Of a stretch of DNA of 64,000 nucleotides, positions 43,973 through 59,643 are shown one piece after another (position 1 is the first letter of the stretch; every line of letters starts with the position of its first letter). Below the pieces are notes generated by a model that worked only from the letters and a program-made list of their open reading frames with translations, was not told the origin of the DNA and ran no database searches. A program made the position numbers and the translations under genes. Origin of the DNA: Candidatus Aenigmatarchaeota archaeon (GTDB lineage Archaea; Aenigmatarchaeota; Aenigmatarchaeia; PWEA01); the NCBI GenBank assembly GCA_046539325.1, contig JBKHHD010000006.1, positions 3,898 to 67,897 of the forward strand, in the 5' to 3' direction.

Positions 43973-44055
43973 TAGCCCCGCCAGGATTCGAACCTGGGCC
44001 ATGAGGTCCAGAACCTCACATCCTTAGCCATTTTTGACCGCTAGACTACGGGGCT
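43973..44055 (-). tRNA. tRNA-Gln(CUG) with an oversized (19-nt) D-loop, possible ~10-nt insert
   Basis: AGCCCCG-TA-GTCT-AGCGGTCAAAAATGGCTAA-GGAT-G-TGAGG-TTCTGGA-CCTCA-TGGC-CCAGG-TTCGAAT-CCTGG-CGGGGCT-A. Confidence 0.8.
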
Positions 44056-44138: not shown

Positions 44139-44573
44139 ATGCCGGTAATAGGTGTCAATATCAGGAACATCAACTCGGAAAGAGGAGAAAACGTAGGTGG
44201 CAATCTCAAGGTCAACAATACACCCAAGATCAAGGGTGTAAAGATAAAGGAAGTGGGTAACATCAACAAGGAGGCACTTTCGATAGACTTTGAGTACACC
44301 TGCAAATACTCAAAGGAAGACAGTGATGAGTCTGTTGCAGAGATAAACATAGGCGGAGAAGTGCTTTTTATGACCGATGACCCCCAGAGTGTAGTGGAAA
44401 ACTGGGAGGAAAACAAGGACCTACCCGAAGAAATAGTCATACCAACAATCAACAGCGTCATGAGAAAGTCTCTTACGAAAGCCATAGACATATCGGAGTC
44501 ACTTCAAGTACCGCCACCGATAAGGTTCCCGAAGGCAAAGAAAAAGTCTGATAGTGCTCGATACATAGGATAA
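44139..44573 (+). CDS. hypothetical protein
   Basis: ATG 44139 lies 6 nt after AGGAGGTG (track ORF starts TTG 44118); 144 aa, no family recognised. Confidence 0.55.
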   Translation: MPVIGVNIRNINSERGENVGGNLKVNNTPKIKGVKIKEVGNINKEALSIDFEYTCKYSKEDSDESVAEINIGGEVLFMTDDPQSVVENWEENKDLPEEIVIPTINSVMRKSLTKAIDISESLQVPPPIRFPKAKKKSDSARYIG

Positions 44574-44676
44574 ACTCCTTAAAATCTTTTATTTTTACTT
44601 TAAATTTATTTAATTTCTTTTTATTCCAATTAAATCCTTTAAATGTATTTATAGTTCTTATAAGCCTATTAAAACG

Positions 44677-44717
44677 TCGTGAGGGTTACCACTAACTCTC
44701 ACATTTTCGTGAGTTTT
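44677..44717. repeat. three GTGAG-type boxes (forward, reverse, forward) in an AT-rich convergent spacer
   Basis: TCGTGAGGGTT 44677-87; AACTCTCACATT 44694-705 (complement = AATGTGAGAGTT); TCGTGAGTTTT 44707-17. Confidence 0.7.
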
Positions 44718-44772
44718 GTAAAAATTTACTAAAAAATATATTTTATTAAATATGTTCTATAATATATAATTT

Positions 44773-44828
44773 AAGAAAAATATGTAGAAAAAAATGTTAT
44801 AACAAATATAGTTAAAGAAAAATATGTA
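44773..44828. repeat. 14-nt direct repeat AAGAAAAATATGTA x2 (44773-86, 44815-28)
   Basis: Read directly; the AT-rich context lowers its significance. Confidence 0.6.
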
Positions 44829-44845
44829 TAAACATATATATAGAA

Positions 44846-45370
44846 TCACTTGTTTTTTAGTGCAGTCTTATAAATACTTCTCCATTCATTCGCCAGCTTC
44901 TCTAAATGTGAAGAAAAGGACTTAGAGGGCTTGAGAACCATAAACCATCCCCTTCCAGGATCGGACTCTACCGCTTCTCTTTCCCTTTGAAGTATACCGA
45001 ATTTGACCAGTTTGGGTATCACTACGTTATAGGCAGTAGAGGACGGTATACCCTCATTTTCAAGGAAATCAGAAAGTATATCCTTGTCAACGCCATCAGA
45101 ATTCGAGAGCACAAAATCAACAAGCTTCGTGGCATATTTATTACTCCTTTCCTGGTAGTCTTCGGGAAAAATGTGGTTTATGACGTCCTCCAGATCCCAC
45201 CTAATATCCCCATCTATGGAGGGCCAATCCTCGCCTTGAACGGAGGGGAAGAAAAGGCTTTCTTTGCTTTTCAGTGTTTCGCCCTCAACTGGAACAGGTT
45301 TATCGTTTCCCTTGGAAATTTTATCACCATATTGGAAGATTTGTGTTTCACAACGTTTCGTTATAATTAT
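44846..45370 (-). CDS. winged-helix DNA-binding protein; frame is open well upstream of the only canonical (GTG 45112) start
   Basis: C-terminal wHTH (GIPSSTAYNVVIPKLVKFGILQRE). The frame stays open to 45436 and reads protein-like (..ETQIFQYGDKISKGNDKPVPVEGETLKSKESLFFPSVQGEDWPSIDGDIRWDLEDVINHIFPEDYQERSNKYATKLVDF-VLSNSDG..). AGGAG lies 7 nt upstream of ATA-ATT-ATA at 45370. Confidence 0.5.
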   Translation of the reverse strand: MIITKRCETQIFQYGDKISKGNDKPVPVEGETLKSKESLFFPSVQGEDWPSIDGDIRWDLEDVINHIFPEDYQERSNKYATKLVDFVLSNSDGVDKDILSDFLENEGIPSSTAYNVVIPKLVKFGILQREREAVESDPGRGWFMVLKPSKSFSSHLEKLANEWRSIYKTALKNK

Positions 45371-45512
45371 GGAGTTTCTCCTAAATAAAAGTTTACAACA
45401 TATCGTTATTGAACAAGAAAATATGGATTGAGACCCCTAGGGAACCAAGCAAAATATACCCAAAAACCGGAACCCATGTAATCTGGTTTATCAAATCGTT
45501 GTGCAACAGAAT

Positions 45513-45860
45513 TTACTCCTCTTCAGATTCTTCATCCTCTTCTTCAGAATCCTCACTGGAATCTTCGTCGGATTCCTCTATCTTTCTCTCAAACTTTCTG
45601 ACAAGCCCCTCCAGATCATGGGCTATTTCCTCTCCGTCGTCAGTAAGCTCAATAAGCTTCACCCTCCCTTCCTTGCTGAACTCCACCAGTTCAAGTTCCT
45701 GGAATTTGTCAAGAACCTTGATAGTATGTGAATATGTGCAGTCAACGCCTTTACTTACTTCCGTCGCATAGTTGGGGTTATCGCCCTTTTTGAGAAAAAC
45801 AAGCATTTCAGCCGGCTTCTCCTGTAGAAATAATTCCTTGAAAATTTCCTTGCCCGGCAC
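45513..45860 (-). CDS. winged-helix transcriptional regulator with acidic C-terminal tail
   Basis: GTG start; NPNYATEVSKGVDCTYSHTIKVLDKFQELELVEF wHTH pattern; the tail is SDEDSSEDSEEEDEESEEE. Confidence 0.65.
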   Translation of the reverse strand: MPGKEIFKELFLQEKPAEMLVFLKKGDNPNYATEVSKGVDCTYSHTIKVLDKFQELELVEFSKEGRVKLIELTDDGEEIAHDLEGLVRKFERKIEESDEDSSEDSEEEDEESEEE

Positions 45861-46034
45861 TTATCACACCTAGGTATAATTACTTAATCAAAGTATTTAA
45901 ATATTTAATTTTATGTTTTATGATATATATTTTTAATAATATATTTGTTTACAGGTATTTTAATAAAAATATTATATAAAATATACTTTTCTAAACATTG
46001 GTTAAAAAATATAAACTAAAAAACATATTTTTTA

Positions 46035-47060
46035 TTACTGAAAAATTTTCTCTAATGTGAGAGTTACTGAGATAAAGGCCAGGCCGGTTGCTATGGAAAT
46101 TCCAAACCTTGCGAGGCCACTTCCAGGATTAAGTATCACTCTACTTGCTTCAGAAGCCACAAGAGCGAAGCCTAGAAAGAATGCTATGTAAGTCGAATGT
46201 CTTAGAATACTTGATCTATCGGGAAAAGCAATAACGGACTTACCTACCATAGACACAAGAAATGCGGTGAAGAAAAGATAAACTGAACCTTGGAGAAATG
46301 CTGCACTTGACTCTATAATGTCTGCAGTTGGCTCCATCTGAACTGAATTGTATCCACTGTTTATAGCTATAGCTGCTATAGCTAATGAAACAACATAGAA
46401 GAAGAATGTGACTCTTCTGGCTGTAAAGGAGGTCTGAAGCTCATTGTATATTCTCTCAAGAGGCTCTTCAAGATGAAAGCCTCTTATCAACAGATAAGCA
46501 CCTAAAATACCCAGTGTTATCCTCCATCCCCTTACCCCCAGAAGGGAATAAAATATCAAGAATATAGCAGGGATTCCAAAGAATATCTTGCCCATTTTAG
46601 GATCCGAGAGGACTTCTTTAAAGAACTCATTTATCTGGTAGTACATGCCCTCTAACCTCTCGCTCTGTTTCATTATCACCCTTTTCACGGAAACTATCTC
46701 CGCATGGTTCTGAACTATGGGGAGTATCTGCTCGTCTTCAGTTCCGTCGACTACAAGAACAACTTTTTCACGGTTCGTTTCCTTGAGAACTTTCTGAAGC
46801 TGCTCGTTAAGTATCTCATCGCTTTCTACGCCTACGTGGCTGTTCCCTGTTATTGTAGCTACTTCGGAATTTTCCTTCTCCTCGTAAATCTTAACTGCCT
46901 GAAGTATTGTGTTTGTGTCAGAATCCTCAGGATCGGAGAGGCCAAGAACTTGAGCTAGCTCAAGGTTCTTTTCCTTGCCTACAACCGGTCCTTCAAAATC
47001 CGTCTTCCTGCCGACATCGTCGTCTCTGTCTACGGCAAGTACGAGAAGATCTTCAGACAT
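46035..47060 (-). CDS. DUF373-family archaeal membrane protein
   Basis: Soluble N-domain LVLAVDRDDDVGRK..VVDGTEDEQILPI followed by ~6 TM helices. Confidence 0.7.
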   Translation of the reverse strand: MSEDLLVLAVDRDDDVGRKTDFEGPVVGKEKNLELAQVLGLSDPEDSDTNTILQAVKIYEEKENSEVATITGNSHVGVESDEILNEQLQKVLKETNREKVVLVVDGTEDEQILPIVQNHAEIVSVKRVIMKQSERLEGMYYQINEFFKEVLSDPKMGKIFFGIPAIFLIFYSLLGVRGWRITLGILGAYLLIRGFHLEEPLERIYNELQTSFTARRVTFFFYVVSLAIAAIAINSGYNSVQMEPTADIIESSAAFLQGSVYLFFTAFLVSMVGKSVIAFPDRSSILRHSTYIAFFLGFALVASEASRVILNPGSGLARFGISIATGLAFISVTLTLEKIFQ

Positions 47061-47149
47061 GTGTAATACTGGTGTAGATAAAAATAAAAGAGTAACGTAT
47101 TGGATAAATTTTAAATACGTGCAGACCGCTTTTGCCTGTGGGTGTTAAA

Positions 47150-47359
47150 ATGGGTGAACTACCATTAGCTCCGGTTGATAGGATCATAAGAAGTCAAGGA
47201 GCGAAAAGAGTTTCCGAAGAAGCCACTGAGGAATTTGCAGAGGTTATCGAGGAAATTGCAGCCGATCTAGCAGCAGAGGCAGCGGCCTTAGCAGAACATG
47301 CTGACAGGAAGACTGTGAAGGGAGAAGACGTCAGGCTTGCTAGCAGGAAAGGCTTCTAA
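47150..47359 (+). CDS. archaeal histone (HMf family)
   Basis: ELPLAPVDRIIR..GAKRVSEEA...AEHADRKTVKGEDVRLA histone fold; ATG 47150 preferred over the track start 47132. Confidence 0.9.
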   Translation: MGELPLAPVDRIIRSQGAKRVSEEATEEFAEVIEEIAADLAAEAAALAEHADRKTVKGEDVRLASRKGF

Positions 47360-47385
47360 CTTCTTTTTTATTTTTATGTGATTCT

Positions 47386-48393
47386 ATGGATGAGAAGGTA
47401 AAGGAACTAGCTGAGAAGATAGCTGAAGAGAAGGGAACGGATGTAGATGAAGTTATAGATAAGATTGAAGGTAAAGAAGAGGAGTACAGCGGACTTATTT
47501 CTAAGGAAGGCGCCGCACATATAGTTGCCAAGGAGGAGGGCCTCGAGCTTATGGAGGAGGAAGGAGACAACGAGCTAAAGATAGAGAACGTCGTTTCTGG
47601 AATGAACAGCGCAACCGTCACAGGAAAGGTCGAAAAGATCTTCGGCCCGAGGACATTCGAGACGGATGACGGTGAGGGTAAGGTTGCCAACCTAATTTTA
47701 AGGGATGGAACAGGTACCGTAAGATTCTCTTTATGGAACGATGAGGCCGAGGAGCTTATCGAGGATGAAAAGATAGAGGTAGGGGATACAATAAAGGTAG
47801 AAAACGGATACGTAACCGAGGACAACAGGGACGAACCGGAGTTAAGGCTTGGTAGGTCGGGCAAGGTAAAGGAACCAGAAGAGGAGCTAGATGTTGAAAT
47901 ACAGACAGGCTCAGGAGGAAGCAGCGGAGAAAGCCAGGGAAGAGTAAAGATATCAGAGCTTGTGCCTGGACAAAGCGGTGAAGCCAGAGGCACAGTGGTT
48001 AACACATTTGGCAAGAACCCCTTCTACAAGACGTGTCCTGAATGTGAAGAAAGGGTCGAAGACGAGGAGTGTGAAGAACACGGGAAGGTTAAAATAAATA
48101 TGGCCCTTTCGTTAGTCATAGACGACGGAAGCGGGTCTATAAGATGCGTTTTCTTCAGGGACCAGGCGGAGGAACTTCTTGATATGGATACGGATGAGGC
48201 CTGGAAGATGACCGATGAAGGAGAGAACATGGAAGAGTTTATGGAAAGATGTGACGAGCTTCTAGGTAATGAAATAGTTGTCCAGGGACGCGTGAAGATG
48301 AACGACTTCTTTGGTATGCCTGAGCTTTTAGTCAATTCTATGGAAAAGGCGGATGTTGCGGAGGAGGCAGAAAAACTTCTTGAAACAGTTTAA
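47386..48393 (+). CDS. replication protein A (RPA/SSB), OB folds plus zinc motif
   Basis: N-terminal YSGLISKEGAAHIVAKEEG, OB-fold segments, CPECEERVEDEECEEHG zinc ribbon. Confidence 0.85.
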   Translation: MDEKVKELAEKIAEEKGTDVDEVIDKIEGKEEEYSGLISKEGAAHIVAKEEGLELMEEEGDNELKIENVVSGMNSATVTGKVEKIFGPRTFETDDGEGKVANLILRDGTGTVRFSLWNDEAEELIEDEKIEVGDTIKVENGYVTEDNRDEPELRLGRSGKVKEPEEELDVEIQTGSGGSSGESQGRVKISELVPGQSGEARGTVVNTFGKNPFYKTCPECEERVEDEECEEHGKVKINMALSLVIDDGSGSIRCVFFRDQAEELLDMDTDEAWKMTDEGENMEEFMERCDELLGNEIVVQGRVKMNDFFGMPELLVNSMEKADVAEEAEKLLETV

Positions 48394-48431
48394 AGTATTT
48401 AAGAATCCAACCTCAATGGGTTAAATGTTCA

Positions 48432-49376
48432 ATGTCTGATGAAATAGACCTCAAAGATCTTCCTGGTGTAGGAGAGAAGACGGCAGAGAAGCTTAAGGAT
48501 GAAGGTTACAAGGATCTTATGTCTATAGCAGCTGCTTCCTCCGGTGAAATCTCAGGCAAAACCTCTATAGGTGAATCCACAGCTAAGAAAATAATAAGCG
48601 CCGCCCGGAATGAGATGGAGATGGGCTTTGATACTGCTTCTAAGGTCTACGAGGAAAAGGATGATATTACACAGATAAGCACGAACTCTGATAAGATAGA
48701 TGAGCTCATTGGTGGCGGAATAGAGACACAGACAATAACCGAAGCGTACGGAGGCTACGGCTCAGGTAAGTCGCAGATGGCTTTTCAGCTCTCGGTAAAC
48801 GTTCAGAAGGAGGAAGGAAAGGGTGGTCTCGGTAAAGGATGCGTATTTATAGATACAGAGAATACCTTCAGCCCTGAAAGGGTTAAGGAAATAGCTGAAA
48901 ACCATGACATGGACCCCGAAGAGGTTCTCGACAACATATACGTCGCAAGGGCATATAATTCAGACCACCAGATGGTCCTCGTCAACGAAGCAGATGAGAT
49001 ATTGGGAAAGCAGGAAGTTGGTCTTGTAGTTGTTGATTCCTTGACAGGACAGTTTAGAGCGGACTACACTGGCCGTGGTGATCTAGCTGAAAGACAGCAG
49101 AAACTTAACAGGCACCTTCACGACCTTCAGAGGCTTGCTGAAGTTTACAATGTGGCTGTTTTCATATCAAACCAAGTTATGTCTAAGCCTGACGTAATGT
49201 TCGGTGATCCAACAGAAGCTATAGGTGGCCACATACTCCACCACGCAGCAGCCTTCAGAATGTACCTTAGAAAGGGCAAGGGAGATACACGAATCTGTAA
49301 GCTTGTGGACAGTCCTTATAAACCAGAGGGGGAAGCCCCCTTCAAAATAACCGAAAAGGGCATAGTCGACAAGTAG
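48432..49376 (+). CDS. radA: DNA repair and recombination protein RadA
   Basis: HhH LPGVGEKTAEKL, Walker A GGYGSGKSQ, VVDSLT Walker B. Confidence 0.95.
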   Translation: MSDEIDLKDLPGVGEKTAEKLKDEGYKDLMSIAAASSGEISGKTSIGESTAKKIISAARNEMEMGFDTASKVYEEKDDITQISTNSDKIDELIGGGIETQTITEAYGGYGSGKSQMAFQLSVNVQKEEGKGGLGKGCVFIDTENTFSPERVKEIAENHDMDPEEVLDNIYVARAYNSDHQMVLVNEADEILGKQEVGLVVVDSLTGQFRADYTGRGDLAERQQKLNRHLHDLQRLAEVYNVAVFISNQVMSKPDVMFGDPTEAIGGHILHHAAAFRMYLRKGKGDTRICKLVDSPYKPEGEAPFKITEKGIVDK

Positions 49377-49391
49377 AGTTCTTTAAACTTC

Positions 49392-49649
49392 TTAAATTAT
49401 GTCGTTCTCAGACACAATTACGAAGTCCCCCACTGAGTTTATCGCAGAAAACGGAATCAGATGCCTTCCTTGGTCATCCATTTCTACTTGAAGATCGGAG
49501 ACATGCTTTGTAGGCTCTGTAAGAACTATGTTCATAAGTTCTCCTGAGTCCGTTATGAAAGAAACATCGCCGACTGTGCCGAATTTTTTCCCTGCTTCTT
49601 CAGAAACAACTACCTTTCCCATAAGTTTTTTTCCTCTTATATCTGCCAT
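49392..49649 (-). CDS. PRC-barrel domain protein
   Basis: LMGKVVVSEEAGKKFGTVGDV...IPFSAINSVGDFVIV pattern. Confidence 0.7.
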   Translation of the reverse strand: MADIRGKKLMGKVVVSEEAGKKFGTVGDVSFITDSGELMNIVLTEPTKHVSDLQVEMDDQGRHLIPFSAINSVGDFVIVSENDII

Positions 49650-49689
49650 GCTATCACCATTTACTATTATTCAGGGGCTTATTTAAATT

Positions 49690-50355
49690 TTACAGAAGAA
49701 GTACGAGCAAACTTATCATCCCACCTGAAAAAGTTGCAGCCAGGTTCACTTCGGATTTGGTCATATAACCCCTTCTCTCCAGTGTAGCTCCAAGTATTGA
49801 GTCCATGTGACAGCCCATGAATCCACCTATAAAGGGAGCAAGGATGCCAATTCCAAAAAGGAAATGGGCTATAATAGCCACAAAAAGGGCACCTATAGCC
49901 GAAAAAACTGTCCCAAGTGGCGAAACTGCTCCGTTTGTGCCGGGTTCAACCTTCTTCCAGGTGGTTATAAGTCTGGCTCTTTTAGAGAAAACTCCAACCT
50001 CCGAAGCAAGGGTATCGGCCATGGCTGTTGATACAGAACCGGCAAACCCAACGGGGCTGGATATAATCGCAAAGAATGCAGGCGATGAGCCGTTGCCTAA
50101 TATATTTTGAATGTTTCTCGTGCCGTTCTCTTCTTCCTCCACACCGATCTTCTTCTTTCTGTCATATCTCCACTTTGTGCCAGCATAACCGACAACTAGA
50201 AAGGAAACTAAAATAAATATCCATGCTGGATCGTTTAGGGCCCATATCAATGATCCGATGATAAAGGCAGTAAGGCTGGCTTTAGCTGAGAGAACCTCTG
50301 TCTTCCATGTAACAAGTGCTAATGCTGAACAACCTGCAAAGACTTCTAGCATCAA
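49690..50355 (-). CDS. DUF92/TMEM19-family integral membrane protein
   Basis: Multi-TM; GNGSSPA and TNGAVSPLGT motifs as recalled for TIGR00297. Confidence 0.65.
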   Translation of the reverse strand: MMLEVFAGCSALALVTWKTEVLSAKASLTAFIIGSLIWALNDPAWIFILVSFLVVGYAGTKWRYDRKKKIGVEEEENGTRNIQNILGNGSSPAFFAIISSPVGFAGSVSTAMADTLASEVGVFSKRARLITTWKKVEPGTNGAVSPLGTVFSAIGALFVAIIAHFLFGIGILAPFIGGFMGCHMDSILGATLERRGYMTKSEVNLAATFSGGMISLLVLLL

Positions 50356-50364
50356 GTAGTTATA

Positions 50365-51453
50365 TCAGGTGTCCACTAATAAATTTTTGGTCTTAGTGTC
50401 TAAGAAGTAGACGTAGCCCTTTCCTCTCTTCTTCCTTTCGATTATGTCCTCCTTGAGCAGCCTCCTTAATATATTGTTAACGGACCTGACGGCATGCTGT
50501 TTCGTCTTATAGCTGTCTGTTCCAAGTTTCTCGGCTATATCTGACGGGAATAGCTCATCTTCCTCGGAAAGTATCTTTACTATCTCCCTCTGCTTGTAGG
50601 GAAGATCTTTAAGGAAGTCTCTTCCCTTCTCCTTGCTCTCTTCCTCCTTCTCCATATCGTCCTCAAAGCCCTTAAGCTCATCTAATTCCTTCTTATCGTT
50701 CTCAAGGGCCCAGTTTATCATCTTGTCACATATCTTGAGAACTTCACGCGGGAAACCTCCTGTCTTCTCGTAAATTTGTTTCACACAGTCCTCTGTGAAG
50801 GGTGAAATACCCTCTCCTCCTGCGTCTTCTATCCTTCTTCTTATAAGGTCCCTTGTTTCTTCTTCATCCAAGGTAGTAAGGTCTATTCTCGTCGTGACTC
50901 TACTCTTAAGCGTTTCAACGTTCTCCTTGAGTTTTTCATCAATCGCAGGCAAGCCTGCAAATATGAACTGTATTTCATCGACCTGATCAGTTATAGTTCT
51001 CAACCACTGCAAGACCTTAACATCTGATTCATGGGCCTCATCAACCATTAGTAGAAGGTTTTCATTAAGACGATCGCCGAGATAATCTGAAAGATCGTGA
51101 ATACTCACATTCACGCCAAAAATCCTTTCCCAAAGTGAAGGCTTTATTTTTTCCGTGAATATGTCAACAATTTCATCGTATTGCGGGGGCTTAGATAGGT
51201 ATAGAACCTCAAAGTTATCATTGAACTTTTCCTCAACCAGCTTAAGAAGGGTAGTTTTTCCTGCTCCTGTAGCACCCGACACCAACGCAAACTTCCTATT
51301 TTCTTGGATATGGTACGTAAGCTTCCTAAGTTCCTTATCGTATCCAACGAACAAATCAGGATCAATTTTCAGTGTGAAGGGATTTCTCTCAAGGCCCACC
51401 TCCTCAAACCACTCACTTACCTCCTCTTCATAGCTGTTTAACATTAATTTCAC
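50365..51453 (-). CDS. AAA+ ATPase (ExeA/AAA_22-like core) with C-terminal winged helix; Orc1/Cdc6-like architecture
   Basis: NPFTLKIDPDLFVGYDKEL, Walker A GATGAGKTT, Walker B LLMVDEAHE, GGFPREV, C-terminal wHTH (REIVKIL..FPSDIAEKLG..RRLLKEDIIERKKRGKGYVYF); GTG 51453 or ATG 51444 start. Confidence 0.75.
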   Translation of the reverse strand: MKLMLNSYEEEVSEWFEEVGLERNPFTLKIDPDLFVGYDKELRKLTYHIQENRKFALVSGATGAGKTTLLKLVEEKFNDNFEVLYLSKPPQYDEIVDIFTEKIKPSLWERIFGVNVSIHDLSDYLGDRLNENLLLMVDEAHESDVKVLQWLRTITDQVDEIQFIFAGLPAIDEKLKENVETLKSRVTTRIDLTTLDEEETRDLIRRRIEDAGGEGISPFTEDCVKQIYEKTGGFPREVLKICDKMINWALENDKKELDELKGFEDDMEKEEESKEKGRDFLKDLPYKQREIVKILSEEDELFPSDIAEKLGTDSYKTKQHAVRSVNNILRRLLKEDIIERKKRGKGYVYFLDTKTKNLLVDT

Positions 51454-51499
51454 GCCTTATTCATTTATTTTAAACCTTTTTCATACACAAATTAAACAC

Positions 51500-51770
51500 A
51501 TGTGTGAATGTTTTGTGAATATAATGTTAACTTAAAATGAATTTAATATTTAAACGTTTAATTTAACGTGGTTTTAATGAGATATTCACATACTGTAACA
51601 TCTTCATTTCATACTTCACGTTTAATTAACCCTTTCATGTGAATGTAACGTTACTCAATATTACACGAAATTAATCACGTTACATAAAAATGAAGTTTAA
51701 ATGAAGTTCACGTTACCCTCAAATTACATTCACATAGCATTCATAAACATTCACTAGACATTCACGCACG
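51500..51770. repeat. repeat family A: GTGAATGT/ACATTCAC in opposed orientations, including four helically phased copies
   Basis: + copies at 51504, 51515, 51639; complement copies at 51583, 51726, 51737 (GCATTCAT), 51747, 51758; palindrome GTAACGTTAC 51645-54; CACGTTAC at 51676 and 51709; tandem AATGAAGTT(T/C)A 51689-51710. Confidence 0.8.
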
Positions 51771-51924
51771 CTAGAATCTACGTTAATTTGGGTTAATTAA
51801 GATGTGAAGGACTGTTACTCGGGAAAAATAGCCCCTTTACCTTAACCAATGACGTCTGAGGGGAATTTTTTTCTAGAAAAGGTAAGACTTGTGGATAAAT
51901 GACCCATTTCATGGTTAAGTTATA

Positions 51925-52190
51925 GAAATGTGAGTGTTTTACGATCCAGACCAGGGGAAATTGGACAAATTATGTACAAATAGGGCATGTGTGGAGGTCA
52001 AAATGTGAGAGTTCTGAACTGAGTAAGTTACCAGATAAGCATGAGAAATACATAAAATGTGAGATTTAAGCCCGTGGAAGGCAAATATAGGTAAATTGTG
52101 AGTGTTATACTAGAAAATAATGTGTGAAATGTTCTAAATGTGAGTATTAACTTAGGAAAATGAGACTATCAATTATCTGTGAGTATATTT
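51925..52190. repeat. repeat family B: AA(A)TGTGAG(T/A), six co-oriented copies
   Basis: 51927, 52002, 52056, 52094 (AATTGTGAG), 52137, 52177 (CTGTGAG; inside the 3' end of the next CDS). Confidence 0.8.
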
Positions 52191-52483
52191 CTAGCTCGAA
52201 GCAAATAGTCCACTGGTTTTCCTGAATCAAGCTGTTCTCGAATGCCATCTTTCAATTTTATGAGCCTTATTCCGAAGTATTTGCCGTCTCCATCCTTTGC
52301 TCCCTTTGATTCAACTATAGAATCAATAACTTCCTCTATATAATAATGAACGGTAGATAAAGGCACAGAAGACTCTCTAGATAGCTTCCTTAGCCAAATA
52401 CCGTCAGGATATTTCCTTAAAGTTCCTACAAGGTCTTCTACTTTGTCTAAGTCTAGGCCATTTTGATTTTTATCATTAGTCAT
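52169..52483 (-). CDS. small winged-helix DNA-binding protein
   Basis: GIWLRKLSRESSVPLSTVHYYIEEV wHTH pattern, 104 aa. Confidence 0.6.
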   Translation of the reverse strand: MTNDKNQNGLDLDKVEDLVGTLRKYPDGIWLRKLSRESSVPLSTVHYYIEEVIDSIVESKGAKDGDGKYFGIRLIKLKDGIREQLDSGKPVDYLLRARNILTDN

Positions 52484-52491
52484 GGTTTACC

Positions 52492-52508
52492 ATTGAACAC
52501 CGTTCAAT
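52492..52508. promoter_or_regulatory. palindrome ATTGAAC-acc-GTTCAAT just upstream of the 52483 start (candidate operator)
   Basis: Perfect 7-bp inverted repeat 9 nt from the ATG, in the divergent spacer shared with thpR. Confidence 0.35.
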
Positions 52509-52592
52509 AGGGTATACATATCCTTCGGATTTTATAATATTATTCACAGTACGAGTTTTATAAGTTAACCTGAAAATGTAAAATATGGTACT

Positions 52593-53144
52593 ATGAGGTT
52601 TTTTCTGGGAACAAAGATTGATGAAAGCCTCATAAAAGCTGTTTCGAAGGTAAGGAATTCATTCAGAGATCTGGATGCAGACATAAAGGCTGTAAAGGAT
52701 GAAAACCTACATCTTACAGTCAAGTTTCTTGGCGAAATAGACGAAGAAGAGTTAGAAAGAATCGACTGCATAAGGGAAGCATTGGCCGACTTTCAACCCT
52801 TTGAGCTTGAGCTAAAGGACGTAGGAGTCTTCCCTTCTAGAGACTACATAAAGGTAATCTGGGCGGGAGCAGGTAAAGGAAGGGAAAAGTTTGCAGAGCT
52901 CATGTCTGAAATAGAAAACAGGACAAGGGAGGAAGGATTTGAGAAGGACGAAAACGATCCCGTTCCACACGTAACCATAGGGAGAGTGAAAAGCGGGAGG
53001 AACAAACAGCTAATACAGTCCGAGCTGGACGAATGGAAGGGAAAAACGTTTGGACAGATGCTCGTTGACCGAGTAACTCTCTTCAAGAGCAAGCTTACTC
53101 CAAAGGGTCCTGTATACGAAAAAATAAAGGACTACGAACTATGA
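52593..53144 (+). CDS. thpR: RNA 2',3'-cyclic phosphodiesterase (ThpR/LigT, 2H family)
   Basis: Two HxT motifs: HLTVKFLGE and HVTIGRV. Confidence 0.88.
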   Translation: MRFFLGTKIDESLIKAVSKVRNSFRDLDADIKAVKDENLHLTVKFLGEIDEEELERIDCIREALADFQPFELELKDVGVFPSRDYIKVIWAGAGKGREKFAELMSEIENRTREEGFEKDENDPVPHVTIGRVKSGRNKQLIQSELDEWKGKTFGQMLVDRVTLFKSKLTPKGPVYEKIKDYEL

Positions 53145-53512
53145 AGGACGAAAAACTTTACAAGATATCCTTAGCTGCTTCCGTAATAGGATTAATCCTA
53201 CTGTTCACCTTCTCCCATATAACCTCGCCTGAAACAAAGGAAGTATCTGAAGTAGATCCGGGTAACGTAGGAAGTAGAGTAGAGGTGTCCGGAACAGTTG
53301 AAGAGAAATATGTAACGCAAGATGGTCATCTATTTTTTCACGTGAAGGAAAACAACGACGAAATAAATGTGGCTATGTTCAACGACAACCTACAGTCAAT
53401 GGCCATTGAACCTGATTACATACAAGAAGGGCAGAAAGTAACTGTTGCTGGCGACGTTGAAATGTACGAAGGGGAACTCCAGATCCTTCCTGTAGAACTA
53501 GAAGTAAGATAA
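53141..53512 (+). CDS. membrane-anchored OB-fold nucleic-acid-binding protein
   Basis: N-terminal TM LAASVIGLILLFTF; VEVSGTVEEK..GHLFFHVKE..INVAMFND..VTVAGDVEMYEGELQILP OB pattern. Confidence 0.65.
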   Translation: MKDEKLYKISLAASVIGLILLFTFSHITSPETKEVSEVDPGNVGSRVEVSGTVEEKYVTQDGHLFFHVKENNDEINVAMFNDNLQSMAIEPDYIQEGQKVTVAGDVEMYEGELQILPVELEVR

Positions 53513-53914
53513 CTACTCGTTGTCTTCCATAGCTTCCTTGACTCCGCCCTTCCTCTTATACAAGATGGACTTTCCGTCTCTCTTCTCCTCTACAAGTCCC
53601 ATTTTCTTTAGCTCCGATACCTTTCTACTGACGTATTCCTGCCTGTAGTTCATTATCTTAGCTAAGTTCTTCGTGCTCATCCATCCGCCAAGAAGATCGA
53701 GTATCCTCTTGTGTACGTCTTTCAGGTCAGACTCGCTTGTATCTTCGGTTATAACCTTATCCAGCTTGTCCTCCATTCTTTCCATTCTTTCATCAAGACT
53801 GTTTAACTTCTCGTGGATCTCCTCAAGCTTGTCCGTCTTGAAGTCAACGGTCTCGACTATCTTTCTCACAACCCCTGTTTCAGGATCCTCAGCCTCGGTA
53901 TGTTCCTGTGGCAT
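53513..53914 (-). CDS. coiled-coil plus winged-helix DNA-binding protein
   Basis: N-terminal heptad region; C-terminal MSTKNLAKIMNYRQEYVSRKVSELKKMGLVEEKRDGKSILY. Confidence 0.6.
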   Translation of the reverse strand: MPQEHTEAEDPETGVVRKIVETVDFKTDKLEEIHEKLNSLDERMERMEDKLDKVITEDTSESDLKDVHKRILDLLGGWMSTKNLAKIMNYRQEYVSRKVSELKKMGLVEEKRDGKSILYKRKGGVKEAMEDNE

Positions 53915-53997
53915 AGTAGGTATACTTTGTCTTTCAGTACTTTTAAGTTTTGAGATAATCGTATAGCTTTATTTAGAAGAAACAACTCTTTGTTTGT

Positions 53998-55131
53998 ATG
54001 TCGAAGAAGCTGCCCTTGGTATTGTACGGAAACAGCTACGAAAATGCTGATCTATATTACGCCACAGAATTCCTCATCAGCGAGAACGTGCTTTACATTG
54101 AAACTGAAGGGAGAAGCTTCCTTATAACAAGTGAGATGGAGAAGGGAAGAGCGGAAGAGGAAAGTGAAGTTGATAGAGTTTTCACGGCGAAGAGTCTCGG
54201 ACTAAAGGAAGAGTTTGAAGGCCTGAACAACGAAGAGAGGAAAGCAAGGATAATTGAGGAAGTAGTTGAGGTTCACACGGACTCAGAGAAAGTAAAGGTT
54301 GAAAGGGACTTTCCGCTAGGCGTGTACAACGAGCTGACCATAGACGTGAAGGTTACAGAAGGGCCGTTTAAAGAACAAAGAGCTCTGAAGGATGGAGATG
54401 AAGTAGAAAAGATAAGAAAGGTTCAACACGCTGCTTCCGAATCTATAATGGCCGCAAAGAAAGTTTTGGAGGAATCAGAGATTAAGGACGGCAAGCTCTT
54501 CTATGAAGAAGAAGTTCTTACACAGGGAAGGCTGAAGAAGGTAATACTACACGACCTCCTCGACAACAACTGCTCCTGTAAAGAGCTTATTGTTTCCTCA
54601 GGCGAGGAAAGCTCCTTTCCACATAAAACCGGAATCGAAGACAAAGTTCTAGAGCCGAACGCTCCAATAATAATCGACGTATTCCCTTTCAACAAAACCA
54701 ATAGATACCACGGTGATATGACACGAACCTTCGTGAAGGGAGGGGTTCCTGAAGAAGTAGAAGATATGCACGAAGCTGTTTTTGGAGCTCAAAGAAGAGC
54801 TCTCGAGGCTTTAAAGCCAGGAGTAAAGGCTTCAGAGGTAGACAAAGCTGTGTGCGAGTTTCTGGAGGACAGGGGCTACTACAGTACTAGGCTGAACGGG
54901 TCAAAGGAAGCAGAGTTCAAGCATTCCACTGGACACGGGATAGGTCTTGAAGTGCATGAAAAACCGAGGATTGGCAAGGGTGTGGACTACGAACTAAAGG
55001 AAGGTAATGTTCTGGCGATCGAGCCTGGACTCTACAGGAAAAGAGGTGGCGTAAGGATAGAAGACCTGGTCGTAGTAAGGGAAGATGGTGCGGAAGTAAT
55101 AGGTGGAATGAACAGGTCCTTGACGGTTTAA
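53998..55131 (+). CDS. M24-family Xaa-Pro aminopeptidase/dipeptidase
   Basis: IIDVFPF..YHGDMTRTF, HSTGHGIGLEVHE, LAIEPG, GGVRIEDLVVV metal-ligand motifs. Confidence 0.88.
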   Translation: MSKKLPLVLYGNSYENADLYYATEFLISENVLYIETEGRSFLITSEMEKGRAEEESEVDRVFTAKSLGLKEEFEGLNNEERKARIIEEVVEVHTDSEKVKVERDFPLGVYNELTIDVKVTEGPFKEQRALKDGDEVEKIRKVQHAASESIMAAKKVLEESEIKDGKLFYEEEVLTQGRLKKVILHDLLDNNCSCKELIVSSGEESSFPHKTGIEDKVLEPNAPIIIDVFPFNKTNRYHGDMTRTFVKGGVPEEVEDMHEAVFGAQRRALEALKPGVKASEVDKAVCEFLEDRGYYSTRLNGSKEAEFKHSTGHGIGLEVHEKPRIGKGVDYELKEGNVLAIEPGLYRKRGGVRIEDLVVVREDGAEVIGGMNRSLTV

Positions 55132-55465
55132 CAAATATCCTCTATCTGTGAAACTCCTTTGTTTACTAAGATCTTCTTTATCTCCCCTCGGAGTGAGTTT
55201 TTAGGCACTACACCGAACTTCTCGAGAAAGGAGTTAAGCTTTCTTGCTATCTTCGTCCCTTCGGAATCAAAATCAGTGAGAACAAGCACTTCCGGGAGCC
55301 TTCAAAAACTTCCTTCGCAACCTTGTAAAGTGGTCTGCCGTTGAGCGGTATTATTTCATCTACATCCAGTTCCTTCATTACCTCAACATCACGCTTCCCT
55401 TCAACTATCACAGGGAGACCTGCTTTGTTTATAATTTTCCTGATTTCTTCTTTCATAGTTATCAT
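55128..55465 (-). pseudogene. small Toprim-domain protein interrupted by a frameshift
   Basis: Frame 1: MITMKEEIRKIINKAGLPVIVEGKRD...AKEVFEGSRKCLFSLILIPKGRR*. The adjacent frame continues VLVLTDFDSEGTKIARKLNSFLEKFGVVPKNSLRGEIKKILVNKGVSQIEDIC* to 55128. The Toprim Glu and DxD motifs are split between the two frames, and the shift lies near 55290-55301. Confidence 0.7.
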
Positions 55466-55581
55466 TTGAGGAAAGATTTGGCCCACCCATAACATCCTGA
55501 GACATATTTTCCTTGCGGAACTTTCATCAGGACTGATCTAGGTGGGCCTATGTTTAATTTACGAAGAAATTATATAAGCCT

Positions 55582-56100
55582 TCACTGAATTGTGGGCAGC
55601 ATGTCAAAGTAGCTTTTGAGGCCGTCTCTGACCTTCCTCATATAGTCGTTACAGTCCTGTATGAAGACCTGTTTTATGTCGCTGTATATCATCTTCTCGT
55701 AAAAGGTTCTGAAGGCATGCCAGAGCATCGAGCGCTGAAGCCAGGTATCTTGCGGGTAATGTGTCCTAACTCTTGCCGTTCCACTCACCTCTATGTCGCC
55801 CACGTAGTCGTATTCCTCGTGCTTCGCAGGTGTCATCTCTATAAACATCTTGATCTTCACGTAGACGTGTGTGTACTTGTCCTTGGGCTCGTAGGCGCGT
55901 ATCTCAGAAAATATCTTTTCCGTGTCCCCGTCCCTTTTATGCTGGTACTGCTTTTCAGTTATATCGTCTACGCCTATGTTACACTCGTACCTTAGAATGT
56001 CTATGACTTCATTGTAGGCCTCCTGGGGATTAGGAACTGACTCAGCGTCTATATTTACACTAACATCTCCGAAGTCGTCTATTCTGAGGTATGGAGGCAT
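55582..56100 (-). CDS. hypothetical protein
   Basis: 172-aa ORF, ordinary composition, no family recognised. Confidence 0.5.
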   Translation of the reverse strand: MPPYLRIDDFGDVSVNIDAESVPNPQEAYNEVIDILRYECNIGVDDITEKQYQHKRDGDTEKIFSEIRAYEPKDKYTHVYVKIKMFIEMTPAKHEEYDYVGDIEVSGTARVRTHYPQDTWLQRSMLWHAFRTFYEKMIYSDIKQVFIQDCNDYMRKVRDGLKSYFDMLPTIQ

Positions 56101-56163
56101 CTTATCGTCGTTCCATAATACGCGATTAAACTATAAAAAACCTACCCAACAGTATTCAATAGG

Positions 56164-56547
56164 ATGCATAACTACAAAAGAGGTTACAACTTTGAGATAA
56201 GAGTTAGGGATACGTTTCGGGACAAAGGATACGAGGCGGAGAGAAAGGCGGCTTCCGCACCCTACGATCTAATTGTGATGAAGGACGGGCGCGTCTCCTT
56301 CATAATCGACGCTAAGAAGACAGGACAGAGGGACAAAGACCACCTCTACGTAAGCAAGGAAGATATAAAGGACGTTAAGAACGAGGCTGAGAAGATCGGG
56401 GCCACGCCTCTTATAGTTTACGGGTTCTACAGAACGCCCATATACGTAGGAACTGTCGACGAGCTTCTTGAGAGAGGCGGTAAGAACGTCAGACTGGAGC
56501 AAGGAATAAAGCTTGAAAAGTTCATCGACAACTACTCCTCTCTTTAG
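56164..56547 (+). CDS. hjc: Holliday junction resolvase Hjc-like nuclease
   Basis: YKRGYNFE(I), SAPYDLIV, IIDAKKT (E..D..[ED]xK nuclease pattern), collinear with P. furiosus Hjc as recalled. Confidence 0.75.
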   Translation: MHNYKRGYNFEIRVRDTFRDKGYEAERKAASAPYDLIVMKDGRVSFIIDAKKTGQRDKDHLYVSKEDIKDVKNEAEKIGATPLIVYGFYRTPIYVGTVDELLERGGKNVRLEQGIKLEKFIDNYSSL

Positions 56548-56557
56548 GCCAAGAAAA

Positions 56558-56791
56558 CTACTTTCCATCCAATACCTTTTTCCAGAAAGGACGGTCCCAT
56601 CCCCTCTTACTCTTAGATTCTCTTCCCCTGTCTTTCAGAATTCCATAAAAGAAGAACGGTATTGAAAGGAGTAATCCGCCTATCAGGAAAACGAATCCAA
56701 GAATTCTGCTTACTGTAGCGGCGAAGATGAAGTATAGGTTCAGTCCTAGAACGATGCTAAGTATACAGAAGAACAACATTTTTTCCTTCAT
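56558..56791 (-). CDS. small two-TM membrane protein
   Basis: 77 aa, two hydrophobic helices. Confidence 0.4.
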   Translation of the reverse strand: MKEKMLFFCILSIVLGLNLYFIFAATVSRILGFVFLIGGLLLSIPFFFYGILKDRGRESKSKRGWDRPFWKKVLDGK

Positions 56792-56799
56792 CCTTATCC

Positions 56800-57552: not shown

Positions 57553-57606
57553 ATCCGCTTTATCCTTTTATGCAAAACTATTTAAAATTTCACCAATTGT
57601 CGATGT

Positions 57607-57623
57607 CTAAAAATGATTTTTAG
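57607..57623. promoter_or_regulatory. perfect palindrome CTAAAAAT-g-ATTTTTAG in a divergent promoter region
   Basis: Read directly; lies between the XRE regulator (-) and the reductase (+). Confidence 0.3.
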
Positions 57624-57703
57624 CCGGACTGTCGAAGTTAAAGGAGGAAAGGTGCTTATACAATCACGGTAAACTTAAATTTGTTGTTCAGAAAGTCTTT
57701 CCT

Positions 57704-58735: not shown

Positions 58736-58739
58736 AAGC

Positions 58740-59576: not shown

Positions 59577-59643
59577 AATTCGCGCCACGTTCGTTTCTTT
59601 GTCTGAAACCCGGCTTCATAAAACTTATAACTCTTAACAAACT

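Follow-up and report, generated by a model that had tools for sequence, protein, structure and literature searches.

PadR, Lrs14 and RTP proteins dimerise through a long C-terminal helix, while the Rep proteins of iteron plasmids carry two winged-helix domains and have an inverted repeat that overlaps the rep promoter. The dyad of the archaeal ORB is of the TTCCAGTGGAA type, and to our knowledge no sequence-specific fork barrier has been described in archaea. The general anatomy of archaeal origins involves inverted boxes around AT-rich DNA (PMC5333045), and negative control of an archaeal origin by an ORB-rich region set apart from it has been documented (PMC3936714). The locus considered here lies in a 64-kb stretch of DNA (the window) from an uncultured DPANN archaeon of the Aenigmatarchaeota, in which a short non-palindromic element, the B box, is selected as DNA, is restricted in its placement, keeps its orientation and co-occurs with a small gene, gene A.

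The B box is a 13-base element, AAATGTGAGAGTT, with the 13-bp consensus AAATGTGAGA[G/C]TT, and its core is the exact 12-mer AATGTGAGAGTT. Three copies of this 12-mer had been reported in a first-pass annotation and were found as described, at 44694-44705 (-), 46054-46065 (+) and 52002-52013 (+); only 0.01 are expected in 64 kb and 0 of 100 shuffles gave three, so that a chance origin was rejected. The degenerate form AWTGTGAGWRTT, proposed at the same time, matches seven times in the 64 kb against 0.10 expected, and the four additional matches (51100 on the minus strand, 51927, 52095 and 52137) lie within or beside the repeat field. When up to two mismatches to the 12-mer are allowed, 12 matches are obtained against 8.15 expected; those with two mismatches outside 44.6-52.2 kb (6712, 13378, 31271 and 39373) are at chance level in number, and none of the four keeps AATGTGAG. 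A position weight matrix built from 47 field boxes of seven genomes exceeds the cut-off score of 15 at eight sites, namely 44694 (-), 46053 (+), 51100 (-) and five on the plus strand at 51926-52148, and at no site in the remaining ~56 kb of the window; a general oligonucleotide bias is thereby contradicted, and the same restricted placement recurs in every related locus. Moreover, the box is invariant at orthologous positions across lineages, even in relatives whose neighbouring AAA+ protein is only 45% identical, and both intragenic boxes keep all of their synonymous sites, although nearly all nearby third codon positions vary. These patterns agree with the earlier suggestion of one shared factor, and the box is almost certainly, judging from its conservation, the recognition site of a single sequence-specific DNA-binding protein of this Aenigmatarchaeota lineage.

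The strongest site is a composite of three B-type boxes in alternating orientation (44677..44717; GTGAG-N14-CTCAC-N6-GTGAG), flanked by the 3' ends of two convergent genes. Its central full box AAATGTGAGAGTT (44694-44706, -) is bordered by TCGTGAGGGTT (44677-44687, +) and TCGTGAGTTTT (44707-44717, +), the two flanks that the first-pass annotation had pointed out. Within otherwise drifting AT-rich intergenic DNA, 44694-44717 forms a 24-nt block that is invariant in five genomes, and across 18 sequences, whose lineages reach down to 45% AAA+ identity, the 13-mer AAATGTGAGANTT does not change. In all 13 metagenome loci the box follows the gene A stop codon at a distance of 142-165 bp; the left inverted arm varies in sequence and in spacing (N6 or N8), which leaves a simple dimer-on-palindrome picture incomplete. 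Between the composite and the gene A stop, a spacer of 11% GC (44718..44845) contains a 100-bp stretch that ranks second in AT content within the 64 kb; in relatives it is likewise AT-rich, but its sequence is not conserved in all. The composite might alternatively work at the RNA level, as a small structured RNA or as a hairpin or terminator in the 3' UTR of gene A, in keeping with GTGAG/CTCAC arms able to form 5-6-bp hairpins and with a location on the sense strand of gene A at a constant spacing from its stop codon. That reading is highly improbable and was rejected: an Rfam search of the window finds tRNAs only, the RNAalifold consensus amounts to -3.8 kcal/mol with compensatory change in 0 of 6 pairs, with respect to adjacent genes the box copies can be sense, antisense or on an untranscribed strand, and the arms are lost in lineages L011, L022 and L033 with the box itself retained.

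Gene A (44846..45319, -) encodes an orphan protein of 157 amino acids with an ATT start, as assigned by start codon comparison. Structure prediction gives a disordered yet conserved stretch of 40 N-terminal residues, a winged helix-turn-helix (wHTH) and a long C-terminal helix, at moderate confidence (pLDDT 68); the fold matches are weak (PadR, Lrs14-like AbfR2, TFE-alpha and RTP; best E = 2.4e-3), no Pfam family was found for the protein, and its own family is confined to Aenigmatarchaeota. The region between genes B and A (45320..45512), which contains conserved blocks, three copies of a ACAACGTTTCGTTAT-type motif distinct from the B box and a TATA-like TTTATTTA, is probably the promoter and operator of gene A, as its motifs suggest. 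Gene B (45513..45860, -) encodes a MarR-like wHTH protein of 115 amino acids with a GTG start and an acidic C-terminal tail (HTH_27, E = 3.7e-5), and its recognition helix varies less between lineages than the gene A one does. The gene B promoter and spacer (45861..46053) comprise a conserved TATA-like AAGTATTTAAATATTTAATTT at 45893-45912 followed by 141 bp at 12% GC, and no other 100-bp stretch of the 64 kb is as AT-rich as the one found here (8% GC).

Beyond this spacer, an exact copy of the 12-mer (46054..46065, +; matrix position 46053) occupies the antisense strand of the last DUF373 codons (V-T-L-T-L, with the stop at 46035-46037); its position at the end of the gene, beside the spacer of 12-13% GC, had been described earlier. 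The copy is found at the same place in L001, L002, L003, L006, L014-L017 and L020, is degenerate in L008 (GATGTGAGGGTT) and is missing in L009; four consecutive third codon positions are invariant in the box, against 3 of the other ~54. Because the copies at 44694 and 46054 are inverted and 1.36 kb apart, they could be taken for the terminal inverted repeats of a mobile-element relic, a cassette of 36-38% GC near a tRNA-Ser (43973-44055); in addition, a distant gene A family member sits on an 8-kb contig that carries ORFan genes only. There is next to nothing to recommend this explanation, which was likewise rejected, since synteny and boxes are unchanged in lineages down to 45% AAA+ identity, the AAA+ locus carries the same box, no transposase, integrase or PHROG matches accompany the cassette, and a search of the ORFan contig returned no B box; furthermore, neither empty sites in close relatives nor several cassette copies per genome were seen.

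The second locus centres on an AAA+ (AAA_22-type) ATPase gene with a C-terminal wHTH (50365..51453, -; Pfam, NCBIfam), whose product matches a MuB/TniB-like PHROG at 1.1e-20. Its predicted model (pLDDT 87.5) has archaeal Orc1/Cdc6 structures as top Foldseek matches (2qby_A, 1w5t, 1fnn and 2v1u), and the protein is Orc1/Cdc6-like in its three-domain architecture by predicted fold, not a member by sequence. A B box lies on the sense strand inside the open reading frame at +342 (51100..51111, -), and its codons AAT GTG AGT do not vary among 8 distinct sequences, while no more than 6 out of 70 third positions stay constant in them; other lineages retain a box on the sense strand elsewhere in the gene or immediately behind it, at +780, +444, +489 and +1092. 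Upstream extends an intergenic field of 715 bp, which begins with GTGAA/TTCAC boxes in both orientations (module A, 51454..51800), an element distinct from the B box. Such GTGAA arrays precede the AAA+ gene in 15 of 16 lineages, with 5-37 copies per ~450-520 bp against ~1 expected (L044 shows two boxes in the ~100 bp available), and their same-strand distances are helically phased, with peaks at 11, 19-22, 30-33, 41-43, 50-54 and 61-65 bp. The field continues with five direct B boxes on the plus strand at 51926, 52001, 52055, 52094 and 52136 (span 51926..52148), irregularly spaced by 39-75 bp, and a weaker sixth copy at 52175 falls inside the 3' end of the gene next to the array, which encodes a putative 104-aa wHTH protein (52169..52483, -). 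Arrays of 5-10 GTGAG cores, 1-5 of which score above 15, occupy the same place in L001-L006, L008, L009 and L012, in the form of direct arrays with 17-20-bp spacing in L003-L005; in L011, L013, L030-L033, L044 and L045 no B array was found at the AAA+ field.

This arrangement allows the field to be read as a replication origin, with the B boxes serving an initiator or an origin accessory factor as iteron-like or ORB-like sites. Those at 44.7 and 46.05 kb would then be titration or control sites outside the origin, similar to the region rich in ORBs that lies downstream of cdc6E in Haloarcula hispanica or to datA/DARS of E. coli, or would border a second initiation zone with the spacers of 8-12% GC as unwinding elements. 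The three-domain AAA+ protein adjoining a helically phased array, the regular direct B-box arrays of some relatives and the two cassette spacers as the most AT-rich DNA of the window all point in this direction, as does a neighbourhood that amounts to a replication island (RPA, RadA and histone in the window; PolB, a primase-type Toprim protein and canonical Orc1/Cdc6 in relatives). However, the AAA+ gene and its GTGAA array persist in the eight lineages whose field is free of B boxes, and the boxes are therefore not core to the role of the field; nor do they co-occur with canonical Orc1/Cdc6. In addition, of the 41 genes situated left of 44.6 kb, 36 are directed at the region; after strand correction the GC skew goes from plus to minus, opposite to an origin signature (weak evidence); and two expressed-looking genes lie inside the 1.36-kb bracket, an unusual content for an origin. 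An origin-associated role is a live alternative, if a rather unlikely one. The field alongside the B array looks initiator-bound, but other lineages dispense with the box there. As to the partition-type box that the first-pass annotation also suggested, no ParA or ParB gene was found among the genes read near the box sites, and the box is not palindromic.

The orientation of the boxes defines two recurring outward-facing brackets, 44694(-)/46054(+) over 1.36 kb and 51100(-)/51926-52148(+) over 0.8-1.0 kb, which are seen again in relatives; the 7.3-kb bracket put forward in the first-pass annotation dissolves into these smaller units. Outward boxes could fence the cassette and the AAA+ promoter field if a protein on the non-palindromic box halted RNA polymerases, replication forks or the spread of a chromatin protein from one direction only, according to a Ter/RTP-like or roadblock-terminator logic. 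Several features suit such a polar barrier or insulator: box orientation is conserved with flexible position, the composite joins one strong and two weaker boxes, and in the window three of the four sets of boxes sit precisely at the 3' termini of genes transcribing toward the fenced unit (DUF373, a 144-aa gene at 44139-44573 and the 104-aa gene), where they show the same face to an incoming polymerase. Gene A also has low-ranking fold matches to B. subtilis RTP, but these are weak (E of 0.095 or worse). In L031, moreover, DUF373 is inverted with the boxes kept and the downstream box has the opposite orientation, and no transcription runs through the AAA+ gene in the direction of the field, so that the intragenic AAA+ box is left unexplained by transcription. 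We consider a barrier function improbable.

Which protein goes with the box can be approached by co-occurrence. The first-pass annotation had placed four small wHTH genes beside the sites; two of them (45513-45860 and 53513-53914) have weak wHTH family matches and the one at 44846 is a wHTH by structure prediction, whereas the one at 52169 has no family match. The box accompanies gene A or its positional equivalent in every lineage having one, and loci without gene A (L013, L045, L044 and L030) give no matrix match of at least 15 in about 81 kb. In L011, L031 and L033 a short gene A-like protein still has boxes beside it; the L031 protein is related to gene A by profile-profile comparison (E = 7e-4 over 94 columns), whereas homology is not demonstrable for those of L011 and L033 (hhalign E = 0.07), next to which the box is nonetheless identical. 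Other candidates are dissociated from the box: the AAA+/wHTH protein always goes with its GTGAA array, whether B boxes are present or not (they are missing in L013, L044 and L045, for example); gene B, found in all lineages with the cassette, also persists in the box-free L013 and L045; canonical Orc1/Cdc6 is present in L013 and L044 with no box anywhere, and in L031 with boxes only by the cassette; and the 104-aa protein has its own conserved promoter palindrome, TTGAACACCGTTCAA (52493-52507), immediately before the start codon, and a homologue in L031 (41% identity, E = 2e-27) beside a field without B boxes. The ArsR-like gene at 53513-53914, found in six relatives, is 1.4 kb away from the field, and nothing was found linking it to the box. 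The most likely predicted reader is the gene A protein, an assignment that draws on the co-occurrence of box and gene, in about five lineages that carry the gene as opposed to about three that lack it, and is confounded by phylogeny. Several observations run counter to it: the strongest site is downstream of gene A, not in its promoter, which carries the different motif; proteins as divergent as those of L011 and L033 would be expected to shift in specificity, yet the box is identical; the gene B recognition helix is the better conserved of the two; and the downstream box of L031 is reversed.

Taken as a whole, the box may be a shared operator of the gene A protein that faces outward around the cassette and the AAA+ promoter region, a reading from sequence that we hold tentatively, at slightly less than even confidence. 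The gene A protein would bind the strong three-box composite at a fixed distance behind its own gene, the box upstream of the neighbouring gene B, the iteron-like direct array adjoining the GTGAA field of the Orc1/Cdc6-like AAA+ gene, and the one sense-strand box inside that gene. The bracketed units would be the cassette of two genes, together with both of its spacers (11-12% GC), and the AAA+ promoter with its GTGAA field; protein on both sides of a unit might bridge it by looping or fence it, and could in this way set the expression or accessibility of the cassette (as a feedback loop) and of the AAA+ locus jointly.

Among known systems, the putative operator resembles those of autoregulated wHTH regulators in having putative high-affinity sites beside the presumed regulator's own gene with a few more at a second locus and inverted half-sites in the strongest site, and the predicted gene A protein resembles the PadR family and AbfR2 of Sulfolobus as a small wHTH with a C-terminal helix. 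Unlike these, gene A has no detectable sequence membership in either family, its strongest site is 140-165 bp downstream instead of in the promoter, and the B boxes are non-palindromic, oriented, partly intragenic and arranged in a direct array of at least five copies. Iteron plasmids (RepA, RepE and pi proteins) likewise use one short box in a direct array by an initiator-type field and inverted elsewhere, and the 17-20-bp spacing of some B-box arrays is iteron-like; however, the gene A protein has a single wHTH, the composite comes after its gene, the spacing in the window is irregular, and the locus belongs to a chromosome and keeps its synteny throughout a phylum. As with archaeal ORBs and the oriC2 control region of H. 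hispanica (PMC3936714), repeated boxes adjoin an initiator-like gene, extra clusters lie beyond intervening genes at a distance of a few kb, and boxes are inverted around AT-rich DNA; the B box nevertheless does not resemble the ORB dyad, to which the GTGAA/TTCACGTGAA module is a closer look-alike, and tracks neither initiator-type gene phylogenetically. Similarly, Ter sites with RTP (B. subtilis) or Tus (E. coli) are non-palindromic, conserved in orientation and set in opposed pairs, with composites of strong and weak sites and, as proposed here, a small wHTH dimer as reader; the B boxes differ in lying away from a terminus and in alternating orientation within 8 kb, and the fold similarity of gene A to RTP is marginal.

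The exact 12-mer AATGTGAGAGTT occurs at 44694-44705 (-), 46054-46065 (+) and 52002-52013 (+), three copies against 0.01 expected by chance, which bears out the first-pass annotation in its claim of three copies as well as in the flanks and gene positions that it gave. Further sites are contributed by the degenerate form AWTGTGAGWRTT at 51100 (-), 51927, 52095 and 52137; a search of the window with up to two mismatches to the 12-mer returns 12 matches against 8.15 expected, so that degenerate copies elsewhere stand at chance level. For the 13-bp element with this 12-mer core (B box), a matrix was built from 47 aligned GTGAG boxes of the repeat field, i.e., the intergenic repeats upstream of an AAA+/wHTH gene (50365-51453, -), in the window and in six related genomes, and the consensus of these boxes is AAATGTGAG[A/T]NTT. 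Matrix scores above 15 are reached at eight window sites only, namely 44694 (-), 46053 (+), 51100 (-) and 51926, 52001, 52055, 52094 and 52136 (+); the uniform scatter that the annotation had set against its own proposal is not seen within the window, ~56 kb of which lies outside these sites and holds no match above 15. Chance and a general oligomer bias are rejected on the exact and degenerate counts, the mismatch search and the restriction of the matrix to eight sites. In the literature searched, the 12-mer and its complement are absent, and matches to AAATGTGAG among the papers listed are primers and unrelated sequences.

The conservation in relatives on which the proposal had been made to depend is found in four related Aenigmatarchaeota loci (L001, L002, L003 and L006), where the exact 12-mer flanks, at orthologous positions and in the same inverted layout, a cassette of two small genes: gene A, an orphan wHTH gene (44846-45319, -), and gene B, encoding a 115-aa MarR-like wHTH protein (45513-45860, -). 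The site at 44.7 kb is an invariant 24-nt block, AACTCTCACATTTTCGTGAGTTTT, amid drifting AT-rich DNA between two convergent genes, and the 13-mer AAATGTGAGANTT is invariant at sites of this type across 18 sequences from five lineages, a comparison that excludes the complete genome CP070662.1, in which the corresponding stretch (L012 20662-20761) is masked as a run of N. The copy at 46054 overlaps the final codons of the DUF373 gene that borders the cassette, and four successive third codon positions are unchanged there in 8 distinct sequences; outside the box, 3 of about 54 third positions of this gene are invariant. The copy at 51100 is a sense-strand copy inside the AAA+ ORF, where the codons AAT GTG AGT are frozen, compared with 6/70 invariant third positions. 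Most other lineages also keep a box on the sense strand, within the AAA+ gene or directly behind it but elsewhere than at the equivalent of 51100, namely L008, L009/L010 (+780), L011 (+444), L032 (+489) and L033 (6 bp past the stop codon), and it is missing in L031; where such a box is kept, selection acts on its presence there and not on the protein sequence. Judged from these alignments, the B box has the character of a protein recognition site under strong selection, and frozen synonymous sites of this kind can expose regulatory boxes hidden within archaeal ORFs.

Around each unit, in the window and in relatives, left-hand boxes lie on the - strand and right-hand boxes on the + strand, so the boxes face outward. 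The cassette is bracketed by 44694 (-) and 46054 (+) over 1.36 kb, and the AAA+ promoter with its repeat module by 51100 (-) and 51926-52148 (+). The left end of the cassette is a composite site (44677-44717), GTGAG-N14-CTCAC-N6-GTGAG, in which a full box and two boxes of the CGTGAG type alternate in orientation; most lineages keep the N14-15 arm, and the other arm varies (CTCAC or CACAC; N6 or N8). The two 100-bp stretches of highest AT content in the 64 kb, 44731-44830 (10% GC) and 45885-45984 (8% GC) in a genome of 44% GC, adjoin the cassette boxes on their inner side; their AT-richness is kept and their sequence is not conserved in every relative. A polar barrier, in which the box would block from one side, fits the conserved orientation and the position of boxes at the 3' ends of inward-transcribed genes, with exceptions in L031. 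Readings of the element as RNA are rejected, since Rfam at gathering thresholds finds only four tRNAs in the window (ARAGORN finds three) and RNAalifold detects no covariation over 18 composite sites.

The repeat field consists of two parts. The part adjoining the AAA+ start (51454-51800 in the window) is composed of GTGAA/TTCAC boxes, which frequently take the form TTCACGTGAA and number 5-37 per ~450-520 bp, where about 1 would be expected, and such an array lies upstream of the AAA+ gene in 15/16 lineages examined, the loci L001-L013 and L030-L033 among them; in L044, only two TTCAC boxes are present in the ~100 bp available. Same-strand GTGAA distances peak at 11, 19-22, 30-33, 41-43, 50-54 and 61-65 bp, i.e., every ~10.6 bp (11, 21, 31, 42, 52 and 63), and this regularity indicates helical phasing, the signature of an oligomeric protein bound to a single side of the helix. 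At the other end of the field, the B boxes make up an array of their own in a single orientation, 470-700 bp upstream of the AAA+/wHTH gene and abutting the 3' end of a gene for a 104-aa putative wHTH protein (52169-52483, -). Spacings of 17-20, 38-39 and 54 bp recur in this array; unlike the clearly phased GTGAA boxes, it shows no helical phasing at 10.0-10.5 bp (p = 0.74 and 0.18), and its weak periodic signals at 10.7-11.5 bp rest on non-independent genomes. The B-box array is confined to the clades of the window, L008, L009 and L012 and is missing in L011, L013, L030-L033, L044 and L045, although the AAA+ gene and the GTGAA array persist there, which argues that the GTGAA module belongs to the AAA+ protein and the B box to something else.

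That something else is indicated by the genes with which the box is inherited. In the clades of the window, L008 and L009/L012, gene A (A2 family) and gene B are both present, and boxes occur beside the cassette as well as at the AAA+ locus. In L011 and L033, gene B is present together with a short gene A-like gene (hhalign E = 0.07 for L033), and boxes lie next to the latter as well as within or directly behind the AAA+ gene; L031 likewise possesses gene B and a short gene A-like gene (hhalign E = 7e-4, 94 columns), with three boxes around the cassette and none at the AAA+ locus. L013 and L045 retain gene B, lack gene A and have no B boxes, and L044 and L030 lack both cassette genes and have no B boxes scoring 15 or more; together, these four loci without gene A (about 81 kb) contain no matrix match of 15 or more. 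A metagenome scan with the gene A family alignment returned 16 loci, 13 of which extend far enough downstream, and AAATGTGAGA[G/C]TT stands 142-165 bp behind the gene A stop codon in all 13, preceded by a ~90% AT spacer and usually followed by CTCAC 14-15 nt further on. As for the 104-aa protein, a clear homologue in L031 lies beside a field without boxes, and a perfect palindrome, TTGAACACCGTTCAA (52493-52507; form TTGAAC-N3-GTTCAA), located 10-24 nt upstream of its start codon and conserved in L001-L003, L005, L008 and L009, is probably its own operator. The co-occurrence pattern, which covers few independent lineages, therefore points to gene A, whose protein is the most probable candidate to recognize and bind the B box. 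Paralogy among the small wHTH genes finds no supporting evidence, as BLASTP detects no similarity between gene A and the 104-aa protein, nor between either of them and the small wHTH proteins at the equivalent L011 positions.

The ORF at 44846 was redefined to end at 45319 and encodes 157 aa; its start codon is ATT in the window, L001/L020 and L002/L014 and ATG, GTG or TTG in other relatives, preceded in all by a GGTGAT Shine-Dalgarno sequence. Because of the ATT start, the deposited call in the window is truncated to 88 aa. The deposited call in L001 is a 197-aa over-extension. Among 1.84 billion proteins, the family comprises 37 clusters at 90% identity and 53 representatives at 50%, and it has no Pfam family and no family or name in any library searched; a distant member, P0181, was set aside as uninformative, standing in a different context without a B box. 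In the structure model, a disordered N-terminal segment of 40 residues is followed by a winged helix-turn-helix and then by a long helix at the C-terminus, with weak fold matches (Foldseek E 2.4e-3 or worse) to a Methanosarcina regulator, PadR proteins, TFE-alpha and the Lrs14-like AbfR2, and a marginal match to Bacillus subtilis RTP lower in the ranking. Residues 1-40 (45200-45319) have a pLDDT of about 40, yet are nearly invariant (P10, L16, S18, E20, S21, L22, P25, S26, V27, W32, D36, R40 and W41), and this segment resembles a docking motif. It is missing from the short gene A-like proteins of L011, L031 and L033, lineages whose AAA+ field also has no B array. The stretch that separates gene B from gene A (45347-45503) contains three boxes of the type ACAACG[T/A]T[T/A]TCGTTAT, two of them direct and one inverted, together with a TATA-like TTTATTTA, all of which are conserved in the hot-spring clade only.

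Relatives of the AAA+/wHTH protein were found only in metagenome-assembled genomes of Candidatus Aenigmatarchaeota (DPANN), mostly from hot-spring sediments, and the genes keep the same order in relatives in which this protein is as little as about 45% identical: the 104-aa gene, the field, the AAA+ gene, DUF92/kinase, PRC barrel, RadA, RPA, histone, DUF373, gene B, gene A, further genes and AlaRS. In the window, two ORFs located between the loci that carry boxes, 47132-47359 (+) and 49392-49649 (-), keep their place across the phylum, and their homologues at these positions in relatives match the Pfam families of archaeal histones and PRC barrels. In L031, DUF373 alone (15251-16291) is inverted relative to all other lineages, with one breakpoint in the B-box-bearing spacer upstream of gene B. 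By sequence, the AAA+ protein is of the AAA_22 type, near ExeA, TniB and MuB (best matches AAA_22, TIGR03015 and PHROG MuB/TniB-like); it reaches 18.9 bits against TIGR02928 (cut-off 181.3) over the N-terminal P-loop only, carries no Cdc6_lid or WHD_Cdc6 Pfam domain and finds no Orc1 match in a PDB sequence search. Its model (pLDDT 87.5) shows a three-domain fold of AAA+ base, lid and C-terminal winged helix, and the best full-length Foldseek matches are archaeal Orc1/Cdc6 structures (2qby_A at 6.8e-12, 1w5t, 1fnn and 2v1u), followed by STAND NTPases at about 4e-10. The protein is thus Orc1/Cdc6-like in its predicted fold only and falls outside that family by sequence. Canonical Orc1/Cdc6 genes (Cdc6_lid, WHD_Cdc6) occur at a distance of 4-9 kb from the AAA+ gene, in L013 (905-2170), L031 (3723-4898, adjoining PolB) and L044 (1-1109); none was seen in ORF translations of the window read by eye, and no convincing repeats adjoin the canonical gene in L013. 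The phylum therefore holds the AAA+ protein and a canonical Orc1/Cdc6 in one replication-gene neighbourhood, and the former is an additional initiator candidate, not the only one.

The main rival to a gene A operator is an origin-linked role of the B box, for which speak a neighbour that resembles Orc1/Cdc6, the phasing of the GTGAA boxes, the replication genes round about, the iteron-like B array, the AT-rich spacers and an archaeal precedent in which a separate box cluster controls an origin (PMC3936714); nothing on Aenigmatarchaeota origins was found in the literature. However, the AAA+ field of other lineages can do without the box. In addition, 36/41 genes left of 44.6 kb lie on the + strand and point toward the locus, against 12/25 on that strand to the right (44600-64000), and the + strand GC skew remaining after gene-strand correction shifts in the wrong direction, from +0.037 on the left to -0.017 on the right, though this is weak evidence. 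A link to viruses or plasmids is rejected, the small genes having no PHROG matches and an IMG/VR scan for triple B boxes returning nine unrelated tandem repeats, and the same searches are among the evidence on which a transposon-end reading is rejected. If the gene A protein is the reader, its binding at both sides of a unit may, as we propose, bridge that unit by looping or else fence it, and the cassette would thereby be coupled by feedback with the AAA+ locus. A more far-reaching joint reading, which we regard as improbable, is that the B box and the gene A protein constitute an archaeal system not described before, by which a stretch of chromosome bound by an initiator is fenced or licensed, and in which the box would be an oriented boundary or control element of Ter/RTP-like or datA/DARS-like logic governing a second, lineage-specific DPANN origin of the non-canonical Orc1/Cdc6-like AAA+ protein, with the ~90% AT spacers as substrate.

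DPANN archaea cannot be grown alone, and gene regulation and replication control are almost unknown there; a short invariant element with a specific candidate reader offers predictions that can be tested with recombinant protein alone. The box ties the orphan cassette of two genes to an AAA+/wHTH protein that occurs across the phylum, has the predicted architecture of Orc1/Cdc6 and is accompanied by a helically phased array, and a lineage-specific origin or a centre of chromatin organisation has a good candidate in the AAA+ locus.

Compared with known systems, the partition-type (parS/ParB) box entertained by the first-pass annotation is not supported, since the B box is not palindromic and no ParA/ParB family match occurs among the genes scanned at 40.7-55.1 kb. 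Set against general archaeal origin anatomy (PMC5333045), the B array lies upstream of a gene whose product is Orc1/Cdc6-like in predicted fold only, where an ORB/mini-ORB element would adjoin an orc1/cdc6 gene, and inverted brackets and DNA of 8-12% GC are present, where ORB copies would flank an AT-rich unwinding element; the box does not follow the initiator, as the AAA+ gene and canonical Orc1/Cdc6 occur without adjoining B boxes in L013, L031, L044 and L045, and neither skew nor gene orientation supports an origin. Iteron/Rep systems have tandem direct repeats of about 17-22 bp at the origin, and B-array spacing is 17-20 bp in L003-L005 and 39-75 bp in the window; Rep proteins possess a pair of winged-helix domains and the rep promoter contains an inverted repeat, whereas gene A has one predicted wHTH, its composite site lies downstream, and its probable promoter carries a different motif. 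For Ter/RTP or Tus traps, which arrest forks with polarity at oriented sites around the terminus, the observations that bear on the comparison are the conserved orientation and the marginal RTP fold matches of gene A. For PadR/Lrs14 regulators, the predicted wHTH and C-terminal helix fit in topology, at the weak Foldseek values of 2.4e-3 or worse and with no Pfam match, and the putative operator adjoins its own gene and is co-inherited with it, at a distance of 142-165 bp from the stop codon in 13/13 metagenome loci and absent where the gene is absent. A dedicated wHTH protein with oriented operators, or origin-adjacent iteron-like boxes, is of an already known kind; the unusual traits are copies within genes that are held by selection at synonymous positions, brackets that face outward, a constant distance from the gene of the candidate reader, behind which the box stands, and adjoining spacers of ~90% AT.
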